The position numbers and the translations under genes are program-made. Below the pieces are notes generated by a model. The model was given only the letters and a program-made list of their open reading frames with translations. It searched no databases and was not told where the DNA came from. A DNA stretch of 64,000 nucleotides from Escherichia phage BF15: sequence record MW822007.1; one strand, written 5' to 3'. Of this stretch, positions 16,534 through 21,308 are shown piece by piece. The first letter of the stretch is position 1; each line of letters opens with the position of its first letter.

Positions 16534-16537
16534 CAAT

Positions 16538-16568
16538 GGGGACCGAAAGGTCCCCATATTTTTATTTA
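16538..16568. terminator. bidirectional terminator after gene 54
   Basis: GGGGACC-GAAA-GGTCCCC hairpin followed by ATATTTTTATTT. Confidence 0.6.
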
Positions 16569-16852
16569 CGGAATGAAATAAAAGCAGCAACTGAAGCAAC
16601 TAAACTGTCTTCAATATAAACTTCAATTTTTACCGGAGCTTCTGACTCAAATTTACCTGTTACTACACCTTGGAAAATGCTTTCAGTCTGTTCTGGCTTT
16701 GAAAAATTTTCAGAAGGAAAAATTCCGAACTTTTTATCTGTTCCAAAAATTTTGATAAATTCATCATAAACTGCTTCATTAAAAGCGTTATCAGCAGGAA
16801 TAACGCCTTCAACTACAAGTTCTTGACCTAAAAAGCGCAAAGAAGATTTCAT
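16562..16852 (-). CDS. hypothetical protein (position of T4 alt.-3)
   Basis: 96-aa ORF downstream of a strong early promoter with GAGGA RBS. Confidence 0.55.
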   Translation of the reverse strand: MKSSLRFLGQELVVEGVIPADNAFNEAVYDEFIKIFGTDKKFGIFPSENFSKPEQTESIFQGVVTGKFESEAPVKIEVYIEDSLVASVAAFISFRK

Positions 16853-16860
16853 TTTGTGTT

Positions 16861-16913
16861 CCTCATGTTATGTCAGTAAGTCTACTATAACACAACACGA
16901 GGGACTTGTAAAC
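16861..16913 (-). promoter_or_regulatory. T4-type early promoter plus 5' leader; 53-bp cassette identical to the one upstream of alc
   Basis: Minus strand reads GTTTAC-17 nt-TTATAG…CATGAGGA; exact copy at 32288-32340. Confidence 0.55.
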
Positions 16914-18970
16914 TACATCTTGAACTTTTTAGACATTCCATTGATGTTAACCAAAGAAGCCAAGATTTGAGAAACTTCGTTTTCCTCTTCTTTTGATTCT
17001 TCTACAAGGAATTGATTAAACCCAGCCATTGGACGAACTTCACCAGTTTCCATTAGATGGTCGCCATCATATACCGATTCTTCTAATTGTTCAGAAGGAG
17101 GAACGATTGTGCCTTCGATTAGATACTTGTTATAAGCAGTTTCTTTCATCATGTACGTACTCACTTTATTAATCTTCAGCAAAATTCCACGTGGTAAAAT
17201 AACTTCAGCTTCTGATGGAAATCCTGATAAATGTCCTGGAACGATAACTTTGATTCGCTCAGCTCCTTTAATTACCATACCCACGCTAGTTTCAGCATCT
17301 TCATTGGCATACGCAGAATGACTACCCATATGCATTAAATCTTCAGCGTCAACAGAACCTTCTCCTTCACCAGAAAATACTGCACCGGAATCATCTAGAG
17401 CCATATAGTTTTTACCATACTCACCGAAGATATTTGGTTTAAGCGATGTGGATACGAAGTTCTTGAAGTAGAACATTTTATTTTCAATATTATGACGTAA
17501 AGTTTTAAAGGTAACTTCTTGTCCACGGTAAAGTGTAGTTCCTGGAGGAAGAACTGATCCTTTGGCAAAGGCAGAATCCATTGTCTCGATGTGTTTAATA
17601 GCTCGTTCCATATATTCTTCACGGGTAGAATCCGGTTTACCTAAAAGGAATGAGTTCATTTCAACATATGAATCTGCACAATAATCTTCAATTACATCAG
17701 ACTCAGCCTGAGTTAATCCTTTTGGAGTTACTTCAGTACTTGCATATTCATACGCTTGAGAAGCAGACTCATTAATCAATTTATAAACGCCATTCATGAC
17801 AAATTGAACAATAGCTACCTTTTCATCTGGTGTGGCTTTAGAACCTTTAACTAAATCATTGACAATTTTCTTAATAACATCAAAGCTATTAGAAATATTA
17901 ATGTCAGCAAGATCACTTAAAATTTTATCAGTTTTATAATCAAAAAATTCTTTATTCTTTAAATATTCTTGAGAACCTTGATATGATATATCGCTCTGTA
18001 ACTTGATAGATGGATCACGTAAACGCGCATGAGCCAATGCAATATGATTTCGGAAGCTTTCTAATTCATAATCACTAGATTTAAAACGGGAAGCACTCCT
18101 CATACCACCGATAGCTCCTTTGCTGAAGTTTGAACCAACCTGAATAACGCCAGAGTTCATTGGTCCTTCTGCTTTATATACCGGAACTTTAGATTCAAAC
18201 TCTTGATATTTCTTAGCAGCGAAGCTATCACCCTGAAGTGAAGCATCGACAGTAGAGTATTGAGCTTGTGCTGCTAATCGACGACTAATTTTAGTTTTCT
18301 GAATAACAGCTTGATCCGTGCGCTTATCATTTTCTAAAGCAATAGAAGCAGCAACAGCGACAGCTTTAGGAACAGCATTACCTGTTTTAACGTCTACATA
18401 AACATCACCAACCTTTGATTCAACTTTTGTGAATAACTCAGTTGAAATAGGAGGTACACCTGGAATGTCTTCTAAATTAGCATTTTTACGGTAAACCATA
18501 ATATATGCGTACTTTTTATCGTAATCCCAGATTTCCTTTAAAAGAACATATCGACCTGCTCCTTTAGTACGTACTAAACGGTCGGCAATAACTTGCATTT
18601 GACGAGCTGCACCATTTGTTTTACTCTTTAGTACGCGGAATAAGCATGCGTCAATTTTATACTGTTTCATTGTTTGAAGAGCAGTATCAAAAACGGCATT
18701 AATGACGCCAATTGGATTTCCACCTAAGTTTTTAAGTTTAACTAATGATAGTTTCTCATTAACACCTATCATTACGATATGCATCATTTTATCGCCTGGC
18801 TTAACGTTTTTATTTGTATCACCGCCAGAGGTGTATGTACAAAATCTAAATCCAGGAAGCACACTTTCTTCGCCTGCTTGAATAGCAAAAATTTGAGGTA
18901 TTTTATGCTTAGGATTTAAGTTAACAACCGGCGCCGAAGCGCCGTCAAATAATTCTGTAATAAGTTCCAT
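16913..18970 (-). CDS. Alt-like mono-ADP-ribosyltransferase, paralog 2
   Basis: 685 aa; N-terminus about 65 percent identical to the adjacent alt; C-terminal ART motifs YRGQ / FVSTS / SEAEVILPRG (R-S-ExE). Confidence 0.75.
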   Translation of the reverse strand: MELITELFDGASAPVVNLNPKHKIPQIFAIQAGEESVLPGFRFCTYTSGGDTNKNVKPGDKMMHIVMIGVNEKLSLVKLKNLGGNPIGVINAVFDTALQTMKQYKIDACLFRVLKSKTNGAARQMQVIADRLVRTKGAGRYVLLKEIWDYDKKYAYIMVYRKNANLEDIPGVPPISTELFTKVESKVGDVYVDVKTGNAVPKAVAVAASIALENDKRTDQAVIQKTKISRRLAAQAQYSTVDASLQGDSFAAKKYQEFESKVPVYKAEGPMNSGVIQVGSNFSKGAIGGMRSASRFKSSDYELESFRNHIALAHARLRDPSIKLQSDISYQGSQEYLKNKEFFDYKTDKILSDLADINISNSFDVIKKIVNDLVKGSKATPDEKVAIVQFVMNGVYKLINESASQAYEYASTEVTPKGLTQAESDVIEDYCADSYVEMNSFLLGKPDSTREEYMERAIKHIETMDSAFAKGSVLPPGTTLYRGQEVTFKTLRHNIENKMFYFKNFVSTSLKPNIFGEYGKNYMALDDSGAVFSGEGEGSVDAEDLMHMGSHSAYANEDAETSVGMVIKGAERIKVIVPGHLSGFPSEAEVILPRGILLKINKVSTYMMKETAYNKYLIEGTIVPPSEQLEESVYDGDHLMETGEVRPMAGFNQFLVEESKEEENEVSQILASLVNINGMSKKFKM

Positions 18971-18973
18971 GAT

Positions 18974-21067
18974 TTATCCTTGAACGAACTTGTAAGGCAT
19001 GTTTGCAATATCTATGCAAGATGCAATAATTCCAAGAGATGATTCTACTTTTTGTTTAACATTTGATGAAACAAATGATGCAAAGTCAACTCTGTCTTCT
19101 ATTTCAATATCACCTGTCATTGCAACTACTTCGCCGGTTTCCATTAGACGGTCACCGTCATAAATTACTGATTCGGTGAGTTCTTCCGTAGTCATAACTT
19201 CAGCTTGAATGAGTTTTGTATTATTAGATGTTGTTCCGTCATTATTAGAAGCATCAGTTATTTTATTAACTTTGACCATCAATCCGCGTGGTAGAATAAC
19301 TTCAGCTTCTGTTGCTATTCCGAGACTTCCTGGATATACAACATTAACTTTATGAGCTCCATCAATTGCCCATCCTATTTGAACTTTAACGTATTCAGGA
19401 TTTTCTTTATACGCTCTTATTTCGTTTGGATTAATAGTTATTCCTTCTTCATTTTTATCAACTGTCAATTCATTACGAGCTTCTGGTTCTAAAAGACCAA
19501 TACCAGCATGTGTAATTCCAAAACGTCCAAAAATGATAGGAGTTAAAGAAGTAGATACAAAATTTCTGAAATAGAACACTTTATTTTTAACTAGTGCTTC
19601 GTATATAGGAGCAGTCATGCTTTGAGCACGATAAACTGTAATGCCTTCTGGTATACGGTCACCATTTTCAAAAGCTGAATCTAAATTATTTATCGCAGAT
19701 TCAATTTCTTTTTCACTCATTACATCATATCGTTCTGGATTGTAGCGGCCTAAAAGAAGATTATTGATGTCAGTATATCCTGATCCACAATACTCTCTAA
19801 TGCCGCGCTTTTGCGATGGAGTATATTTAGAACCATCACGGGCAATAGTAATATCAATCATTGGACCTGCACCAATTCCAGAAAAGCTATAAATCATTCG
19901 TTTGAGGAATTTAGTTTTTGCTGCGTTCCAGGAATTTTTAGTTATTTCTTCCCAGACTTCATCTGGCTGCCCTTTACGAGTTTTATTATGTTTATCAAGC
20001 CAATTATCTTTATATTCTTCAAAGAATTTATTAACAGCTGCTGCGTATTTCTCTAAACATTTTATTGAAGTAGTTGGTTCATTTTTGATCGCGTTAAAAA
20101 TTACATCTTTAATTTTTTCAGAAACTTCATCAACCTCACTTTTTGGAAAGAATTTATAGTCATAGTGAAGTTCATCTGCGGTTCCTTCGGCAATGATTTT
20201 TGCTGCCTTAGTTTTAGAAGCTAATGAATTAATTCCAAGCTTCATTTCTTCTGCTTCGGGAATTAAAGGAGCAGTAGCAGGTTTATTGAAATTAGCTGCA
20301 GTAGATTCATACTTCTGGAATAATTCGCTTTCAAATCTAGAAGATTCTAATGATTGACTTTGCGCAATTGCTCTACGGGAAATTTTAACTTTAACAATAA
20401 CAGCTTGGTCAGAACGTTTATCGTTTTCTTGCGCAATAGATGCTGCAATTGCCTCATTTTTAGTTACTTGAGCTCCAGTATCTTTATTGATATAAACATC
20501 GCCGACTTTCGATTCAACTTTAGTAAAGAGCTCGGTACTAATTTCTGGAACTCCTGGAATGTCTTCTAATGATACATTTTTGCGATGTATAAGAATATAT
20601 GCATACTTTTTATCGTAATCCCAGAGTTCCTTAAGAAGGACGTATCTGCCACCTGAACGACTACGGATAAGTCTATCAGCAATAACTTGAATTTGTCGAG
20701 CTTGACCAGCAGTTTTAGACTTAAGAATACGAAGCATGCAGGCATCAATTTTATACTGACGCATCGTTTGCATCGCAACAGTAAAAACTGAATTGATATA
20801 ATTAATTGGGCTTGGACCGAGACCTTTTAATTTAGCAATTGAACCTTTAGCAGTTAATGTAAAAGGAACAATATGCATCATTTTATCGCCCATTTTTAAA
20901 TCACGGTTAGTATCACCTCCAGATGTATAGGTACATAAACGAAAGCCTGGTTGTTCAATTGCGTCATCGACATGAACTGAAAAAATTTGTGGTATTTTCT
21001 TCTTTGGATTTAAGTTTGTAATCGGAAGAGTAGTATCTTCGTCAAATAATTCTGTAATAAGTTCCAT
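18974..21067 (-). CDS. alt: Alt, virion-packaged RNA polymerase ADP-ribosyltransferase
   Basis: About 697 aa from the second Met; ART motifs YRAQ / FVSTS / TEAEVILPRG; late promoter upstream. Confidence 0.85.
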   Translation of the reverse strand: MELITELFDEDTTLPITNLNPKKKIPQIFSVHVDDAIEQPGFRLCTYTSGGDTNRDLKMGDKMMHIVPFTLTAKGSIAKLKGLGPSPINYINSVFTVAMQTMRQYKIDACMLRILKSKTAGQARQIQVIADRLIRSRSGGRYVLLKELWDYDKKYAYILIHRKNVSLEDIPGVPEISTELFTKVESKVGDVYINKDTGAQVTKNEAIAASIAQENDKRSDQAVIVKVKISRRAIAQSQSLESSRFESELFQKYESTAANFNKPATAPLIPEAEEMKLGINSLASKTKAAKIIAEGTADELHYDYKFFPKSEVDEVSEKIKDVIFNAIKNEPTTSIKCLEKYAAAVNKFFEEYKDNWLDKHNKTRKGQPDEVWEEITKNSWNAAKTKFLKRMIYSFSGIGAGPMIDITIARDGSKYTPSQKRGIREYCGSGYTDINNLLLGRYNPERYDVMSEKEIESAINNLDSAFENGDRIPEGITVYRAQSMTAPIYEALVKNKVFYFRNFVSTSLTPIIFGRFGITHAGIGLLEPEARNELTVDKNEEGITINPNEIRAYKENPEYVKVQIGWAIDGAHKVNVVYPGSLGIATEAEVILPRGLMVKVNKITDASNNDGTTSNNTKLIQAEVMTTEELTESVIYDGDRLMETGEVVAMTGDIEIEDRVDFASFVSSNVKQKVESSLGIIASCIDIANMPYKFVQG

Positions 21068-21090
21068 CATATCCTCTCTAGTGTTTATTC

Positions 21091-21098
21091 TATTTATA
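21091..21098 (-). promoter_or_regulatory. late promoter TATAAATA (minus) upstream of alt
   Basis: Forward TATTTATA about 25 nt upstream of the alt ATG. Confidence 0.45.
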
Positions 21099-21103
21099 AA
21101 ATT

Positions 21104-21121
21104 AAAGGCCCGAAGGCCTTT
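21104..21121 (-). terminator. terminator hairpin downstream of gene 30 / the 62-aa ORF
   Basis: AAAGGCC-TTCG-GGCCTTT hairpin on the minus strand with flanking T-rich run. Confidence 0.5.
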
Positions 21122-21308
21122 AATAATCTAGTGGTAAGAGAGTACGATATATTTCAAACTTTGGCCCTTTTTCATAGGCATCAAATGTTTCTGTAAATTT
21201 ATTATAAGCATATGCATCTACAAATTCGAGAACGATTTGTGATACAGAAGTAGAAACATCTCCACCTTCTTTTTGAGCCACGACAATTGTTTCTAAGTAA
21301 GCTTTCAT
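21120..21308 (-). CDS. hypothetical protein
   Basis: 62-aa ORF between DNA ligase and alt. Confidence 0.4.
   Translation of the reverse strand: MKAYLETIVVAQKEGGDVSTSVSQIVLEFVDAYAYNKFTETFDAYEKGPKFEIYRTLLPLDY

Follow-up and report, generated by a model that had tools for sequence, protein, structure and literature searches.

Does a phage with two adjacent genes for Alt-type ADP-ribosyltransferases (ARTs) bring two different enzymes into its host, or one enzyme in duplicate? The question is raised by the alt locus of Escherichia phage BF15 (sequence record MW822007.1), of which one stretch of 64,000 nucleotides (nt), referred to here as the window, was analysed. The original prediction, made by a model from the letters of the window and a list of its open reading frames (ORFs), was that two tandem genes of this family lie here on the minus strand, both with intact catalytic motifs. 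Based on the ORF list and homology, the first of them, copy A (18974..21067, 697 amino acids), is the alt gene in its T2/T6-type allele, and the second, copy B (16913..18970, 685 amino acids), is a full-length alt paralogue. All features for which coordinates are given below are on the minus strand. On balance, it is probable that the two proteins are co-expressed, packaged, processed and injected ARTs with distinct targets. Phage T4 has lost copy B.

Two full-length Alt-family genes

The window is a Tequatrovirus segment in which the gene order is gp29, gp48, gp54, alt.-3, the two long minus-strand ORFs, alt.1, and DNA ligase gp30. Its source is a T2/T6-like coliphage, and at this locus it has the alt region that is normal for a T2/T6-type Tequatrovirus. 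Both copies are between gene 30/alt.1 and alt.-3/gene 54, 3′ of a late promoter. The listed ORF of copy A (18974..21070, 698 amino acids) has two ATGs at its start; the second, at 21067, is taken as the start codon, as annotated in PP01, T2, and T6, and is 5 nt from a GAGG ribosome-binding site, a better spacing than that of the first ATG. A gap of 3 nt separates the genes, with the TAA of copy A at 18976-18974 and the ATG of copy B at 18970. Copy B has a ribosome-binding site of its own, AAGGA (18977..18981, checked in the sequence), within the last codons of copy A.

Alt-family membership is supported by each of the family comparisons that gave a match. The two proteins align in BLASTP with 41% identity (E 5e-163) and both match PF03496 (ADPrib_exo_Tox; E 2.4e-20 for copy B and 1e-37 for copy A). 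The 674-position profile phrog_802, 'Alt-like RNA polymerase ADP-ribosyltransferase', matches both at full length (E 4e-255 and 2e-272), covering the proteins end to end (1-685 and 1-696). The ORFs, PF03496, and phrog_802 thus agree on two adjacent minus-strand Alt-family ART genes, as predicted. All of the full-length homologues carry the precomputed domain pair PF03496 and PF26846. The latter, which is presumably the Alt N-terminal region, its content being unconfirmed, was not among the matches in the local Pfam scan of the window proteins. No NCBIfam family was matched by either copy. Sequence searches of the PDB turned up no solved Alt structure; copy B alone had no match at E 0.01 or better, and copy A had weak matches only, to CDTa and iota toxin.

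In both copies the C-terminal end holds an ART domain of the R-S-E (C3/VIP2/Alt) clade with Arg, Ser-Thr-Ser, and Glu-x-Glu present. By alignment, with the codons checked, these are R482 (17527-17525), S507-T-S509 (17452-17444), and E587-A-E589 (17212-17204) in copy B, and R480 (19630-19628), S505-T-S507 (19555-19547), and E587-A-E589 (19309-19301) in copy A. Homologue alignments of 17 and 18 sequences show no variation at the catalytic Arg, at either Ser of S-T-S, or at either Glu of E-x-E; in addition, the VYRAQ and EAEV of copy A aligned with the catalytic Arg and the E-x-E of CDTa and iota toxin. Neither copy therefore lacks the Glu-x-Glu, and the proposal that the R-S-ExE signature is intact in both holds. 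In R-S-E ARTs, the E-x-E form of the motif specifies arginine as the acceptor, which is predicted for both copies. Judged from these motifs, copies A and B are predicted to be active as Alt-family, arginine-type (E-x-E) mono-ADP-ribosyltransferases.

Similarity between the two proteins differs greatly by region. In copy B numbering, identity is 100% over residues 1-6, 67% over residues 7-238, 16% over residues 239-412, 35% over residues 413-631, and 44% over residues 632-685. This bears out the predicted combination of a shared N-terminal region and a shared C-terminal ART signature, the motifs of which align, with strong divergence in the middle. The structure of each copy was modelled with AlphaFold2, and the two models have the same order of secondary-structure elements in four parts: an N-domain, an all-helical centre, the ART domain, and a tail. 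This is the architecture of full-length Alt, and the alignment includes T4 Alt. The predicted layout of copy A is a propeptide at 1-6 (ITE-6), an alpha/beta N-domain at ~12-195, a helical central region at ~203-410, the ART domain at ~417-625, the cleavage motif L-T-E632, and a low-confidence tail. Likewise, copy B is predicted to consist of a propeptide at 1-6 (ITE-6), an alpha/beta N-domain at ~11-195, a helical central region at ~200-415, the ART domain at ~420-628, the cleavage motif L-E-E631, and a low-confidence tail at 629-685. In the copy A model, residues 1-11 are of low confidence, as is the tail from residue 651, where the predicted local distance difference test score (pLDDT) is below 50. 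The low-confidence ends of the copy B model, 1-10 and 629-685, are the positions of the predicted propeptides.

Separate conservation of the two genes and loss of one in T4

Phage JS98, of the genus Dhakavirus, has two tandem genes at this position, both named alt (YP_001595323 and YP_001595322), in a syntenic arrangement and with R, S-[TA]-S, E-x-E, and L-x-E conserved. For the upstream JS98 gene, identity is 48% with copy A and 33% with copy B; for the downstream gene, it is 48% with copy B and 32% with copy A. Based on this reciprocal orthology, the duplication is older than the split between Tequatrovirus and Dhakavirus. Both copies are under strong purifying selection, the ratio of non-synonymous to synonymous substitution rates (dN/dS) in comparisons with PP01 and T2 being 0.017-0.046 for copy B and 0.035-0.062 for copy A.

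Comparison of the window with JS98 shows that the parts of the proteins have not evolved alike. The N-domains (18260-18955 in copy B and 20350-21052 in copy A) group by genome: the two are 67% identical to one another in the window and 65% in JS98, compared with 46-47% for the same paralogue across genera and 42-47% for all cross-genus pairs. In the central and ART regions, by contrast, the grouping is by paralogue. Within a genome, central regions are 13-16% identical, compared with 33% (A) and 45% (B) for the same paralogue across genera; for the ART domain, the within-genome identity is 33-40%, and that across genera is 61% (A) and 55% (B). The N-domain pattern points to concerted evolution or to co-adaptation of what may be a delivery module. 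Two metagenomic proteins have a copy A-type N-terminus fused to a copy B body, over the first ~55 residues in P0003 and the first ~195 residues in P0006. Read as natural chimeras, they are consistent with gene conversion between tandem copies and indicate that exchange between the two does happen.

Full-length copy B is the majority state. A 5-kb query covering the locus matched 544 phage records, 364 of them over at least 80% of its length, the best being ~98% identical. Of ~500 Tequatrovirus records, ~396 have copy B at full length with at least 95% identity, and the 90% identity protein cluster of copy B has 772 member sequences. The contiguous junction found in T4 was present in 91 of 502 matching records.

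The T4 region from alt.-3 to alt.-1 (NC_000866, 123065-123450) was aligned with the window and the remnant then rebuilt from it. The interval missing in T4 (16924..18631, from this alignment) is bounded by 9-base-pair (bp) near-repeats, CTAAAGAGT at 18631-18623 and CTAAAAAGT at 16932-16924, between which 1,699 bp are absent in T4. Removal of these 1,699 bp and of one A of an A-run from copy B gives the 358-nt T4 remnant, which at the DNA level is ~96% identical to the first 348 nt and the last 20 nt of copy B. The loss of the A is a 1-nt frameshift that splits the remnant into two short ORFs without an ART domain, alt.-1 and alt.-2 (NP_049810 and NP_049809). In addition, phrog_23015 and phrog_15247, which represent N-terminal fragments as in alt.-1 and alt.-2, match copy B better than copy A. 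T4 alt.-1 and alt.-2 are the residue of copy B after a deletion and a frameshift, and the full-length gene is ancestral, because JS98 carries a syntenic orthologue. In the record of T6 the gene is noted as an 'apparent insertion in alt.-2'; this has the direction reversed, as the full-length syntenic gene of JS98 and the 9-bp near-repeat at the T4 junction indicate a deletion in T4.

Probable expression and delivery, and possible roles of the second copy

A T4-type late promoter, TATAAATA, is present as an exact match at 21091..21098, 23 nt 5′ of the copy A ATG. Between 16500 and 21400 this is the single exact occurrence on the minus strand, in agreement with the suggestion that a late promoter lies only upstream of the distal copy. 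A search for an internal late promoter of copy B gave only one-mismatch variants of TATAAATA within the genes, none of them at the junction of the two copies, and consensus scans of that junction show neither a good promoter nor a terminator-like site. It is therefore probable that copies A and B are co-transcribed late from the single TATAAATA promoter. The T4 alt gene is a late gene in both transcriptome and proteome (PMC9697503).

In T4, the prohead protease gp21 cleaves Alt at two sites, ITE-6 and LTE-619 (PMC5694885), and each head contains ~40 copies of the protein (PMC9026906). Motifs of the gp21 type are found at aligned positions in both of the present proteins, ITE-6 and LTE-632 in copy A and ITE-6 and LEE-631 in copy B, the second site being ~60 residues from the C-terminus; the cleavage Glu of the L-x-E site is invariant across the family alignment. 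The retention of the MELITE propeptide and of an L-x-E site at the T4 Alt cut position is support from sequence for a probable co-packaging of the two copies.

These features can be put together as follows. Late in infection, copies A and B would be transcribed together from TATAAATA, with copy B translated from its own ribosome-binding site. A shared delivery module, made up of the MELITE propeptide, the alpha/beta N-domain, and the C-terminal tail preceded by L-x-E, would place both proteins in the prohead core, where the gp21 protease would trim both ends of each, as in T4 Alt, and the mature enzymes would then be injected with the phage DNA. The delivery module may have been homogenised by gene conversion or be co-adapted to the prohead core of the phage's own particle, and to this one module two long-distinct effector modules, each a central helical region with its ART domain, would be joined. 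The central and ART modules have been kept separately since before the Tequatrovirus/Dhakavirus split, so the two enzymes most likely differ in the host proteins that they would ADP-ribosylate immediately after infection. Copy A corresponds to T4 Alt, and copy B would be a second effector, one that T4 has lost.

An alternative is that copy B is a redundant second Alt, packaged and injected like the first and directed at the same main target, Arg265 of the RNA polymerase alpha subunit, where it would add dose or robustness. The E-A-E motif and the four-part architecture are alike in the two copies; T4 and 91 of 502 related records have lost copy B with no obvious cost; and overlapping ARTs exist in T4 already, Alt and ModA both acting on alpha Arg265 (PMC2988021). 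However, a pure duplicate should either decay or become homogenised over its whole length, and it is only the N-domain that is homogenised. The paralogues have been kept separately across genera, with 13-16% identity in the central region and 33-40% in the ART domain within a genome, compared with 33-61% between orthologues of the two genera, and selection is strongly purifying on both copies. Redundancy is therefore considered unlikely, if still the foremost of the rival explanations. Less likely again is a role for copy B other than that of an injected effector, either in the late infected cell or mainly as a structural component of the prohead core with ART activity secondary. It is true that conservation in both proteins is highest in the N-domain, a non-catalytic part that co-varies with the phage genome, and T4 alt mutants package more DNA (PMC3012670), from which it follows that Alt proteins take up head volume; yet the catalytic residues are invariant, purifying selection acts on the ART domain, processing motifs are kept at both termini exactly where T4 Alt is processed, and T4 Alt, the nearest characterised relative, is injected. 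The broken remnant at the homologous T4 position might also suggest that copy B arose by recent duplication or is decaying as a pseudogene, and has no function of its own. This is highly improbable, given that the 685-codon ORF is intact in the ~396 records mentioned above; the low dN/dS and the syntenic orthologue in Dhakavirus rule out a pseudogene.

Several points weigh against two injected enzymes with distinct targets. The case for distinct targets is drawn entirely from sequence divergence and separate conservation, and that for co-transcription from consensus scans. The stretch between S-T-S and E-x-E is modelled with moderate confidence only in both copies, and literature searches, virion proteomics included, gave no study of copy B. 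T4 and ~90 relatives thrive without copy B, and T4 Alt is itself non-essential (PMC9026906); any function of copy B would therefore be conditional. It is put forward tentatively, as a possibility falling somewhat short of an even chance, that copy B is a second virion-delivered ART with host targets of its own, perhaps a protein of host defence or of the stress response instead of RNA polymerase, and that the N-domain is a packaging and ejection adaptor.

The neighbouring genes have putative control elements as well. Upstream of copy A is alt.1 (21120-21308, 62 amino acids), which matches PF24647 'Phage_blade' (E 1e-29), a recent Pfam family. Overlapping the alt.1 stop codon (21122-21120) is a hairpin, AAAGGCC-TTCG-GGCCTTT followed by AATTTT (21104..21121), which was absent from the consensus-scan output and was found by direct reading, with the sequence checked. 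Located just 5′ of the late promoter, it looks like a terminator of the upstream gene 30/alt.1 transcript. Downstream of copy B is alt.-3 (16562..16852, 96 amino acids), identified from the ORF list and a family match to DUF5498. Directly 3′ of the copy B stop and 5′ of alt.-3, there is an early-type sigma-70 promoter-like site, TTTACA-17-TATAGT (16884..16912), known from its consensus match only, with 10 of 12 consensus positions matched and a TG before the -10 hexamer. This site suggests that the late alt transcription unit and alt.-3 may be separately controlled. The scan also found a strong hairpin terminator 3′ of the alt.-3 stop (16536-16557). In T4, mutations that extend the C-terminus of alt.-3 lead to escape from the CmdTAC defence system (PMC11618068).

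Relation to known Alt systems

The original prediction raised the possibility that the arrangement is novel, to be regarded as ordinary if identical in reference phages. It is identical in T2, T6, JS98, and hundreds of other genomes. Copies A and B are 98-99% identical to annotated genes of hundreds of GenBank phages, T2 and T6 included. In T2 (MH751506), alt (697 amino acids) is followed by a 685-amino-acid ORF noted 'alt.-1'; T6 (MH550421) has the same pair, with the second ORF also described as 'similar to alt'; and in the RefSeq records of PP01 and SHFML-11 both genes are named 'Alt-like RNA polymerase ADP-ribosyltransferase'. The T4 GenBank record itself notes alt.-1 and alt.-2 as a duplication of alt, and alt paralogues adjoining alt were described in RB49, 44RR, and T4 by Nolan et al. 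in 2006 (PMC1524935). The tandem alt arrangement is therefore usual, already annotated, and already known, and T4 is the exception among its relatives.

As a genome feature, then, the pair is routine, Alt paralogues having been noted since 2006; its interest is that T4, the model phage, is atypical at alt, and that two Alt-type enzymes are encoded, if not also injected, by most relatives of T4. If copy B has targets of its own, the classical Alt literature covers only half of an ancestral two-effector system, which, if real, is still used by most T-even phages, T2 and T6 included. Separate targets could also help to explain why T2, T4, and T6 differ in how they take over the host or in how sensitive they are to bacterial defences. 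From the domain-wise pattern of evolution comes a hypothesis as to which part of the protein delivers it and which part selects the target.

The closest characterised system is T4 Alt (gpAlt, NP_049811), a head-packaged, injected NAD+:arginine mono-ADP-ribosyltransferase whose substrates include Arg265 of RNA polymerase alpha and various other host proteins (PMC2988021), and of which copy A is the positional orthologue. The two have in common the R-S-ExE motifs, the position of the late promoter, and the ITE-6 and LTE motifs, although the E-x-E is EAE in copy A and EME in T4 Alt. Overall identity is 70%, with residues 7-246 99.6% identical and the C-terminal 63 residues 95% identical, whereas identity falls to 29% in the central region and to 66% in the ART domain. 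Relative to T4 Alt, copy A is thus a mosaic, with residues 247-634 as the divergent part. As it diverges from T4 Alt in the centre and the ART domain, copy A is the T2/T6-type allele, and it is 98.7% identical to T2 Alt. The T2-type allele (at least 90% identity) is present in ~316 records and the T4-type allele (60-80%) in ~212; based on the mosaicism and these two sets of alleles, the effector part behaves as an exchangeable allelic cassette.

For copy B, the same gene is found in T2 (AYD82791, 'alt.-1'), T6 (AXN58232), and PP01 (YP_010073571), with no difference in length or position. Copy B and the T2 protein share 97.7% identity, and nothing of substance differs, while the annotations of these counterparts range from 'hypothetical protein' to 'Alt-like ART'. 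The JS98 orthologues, at ~48% identity to the window copies and with N-domains homogenised within each genome, represent the same arrangement in another genus; alt paralogues have also been noted in 44RR and RB49 (PMC1524935).

Beyond the Alt proteins, the C3/VIP2/iota-type R-S-E ARTs (Vis, C3bot, CDTa, and Certhrax) and T4 ModA and ModB share with copies A and B the ART fold and the R, S-T-S, and E-x-E motifs. Both Mod proteins are small, made early, and not known to be packaged. Vis, C3bot, CDTa, and Certhrax are without the Alt N-domain, the helical region, and the prohead-protease propeptides and, unlike in these C3/VIP2/iota-type ARTs, S-T-S and E-x-E are separated by a long variable insert in the Alt proteins.

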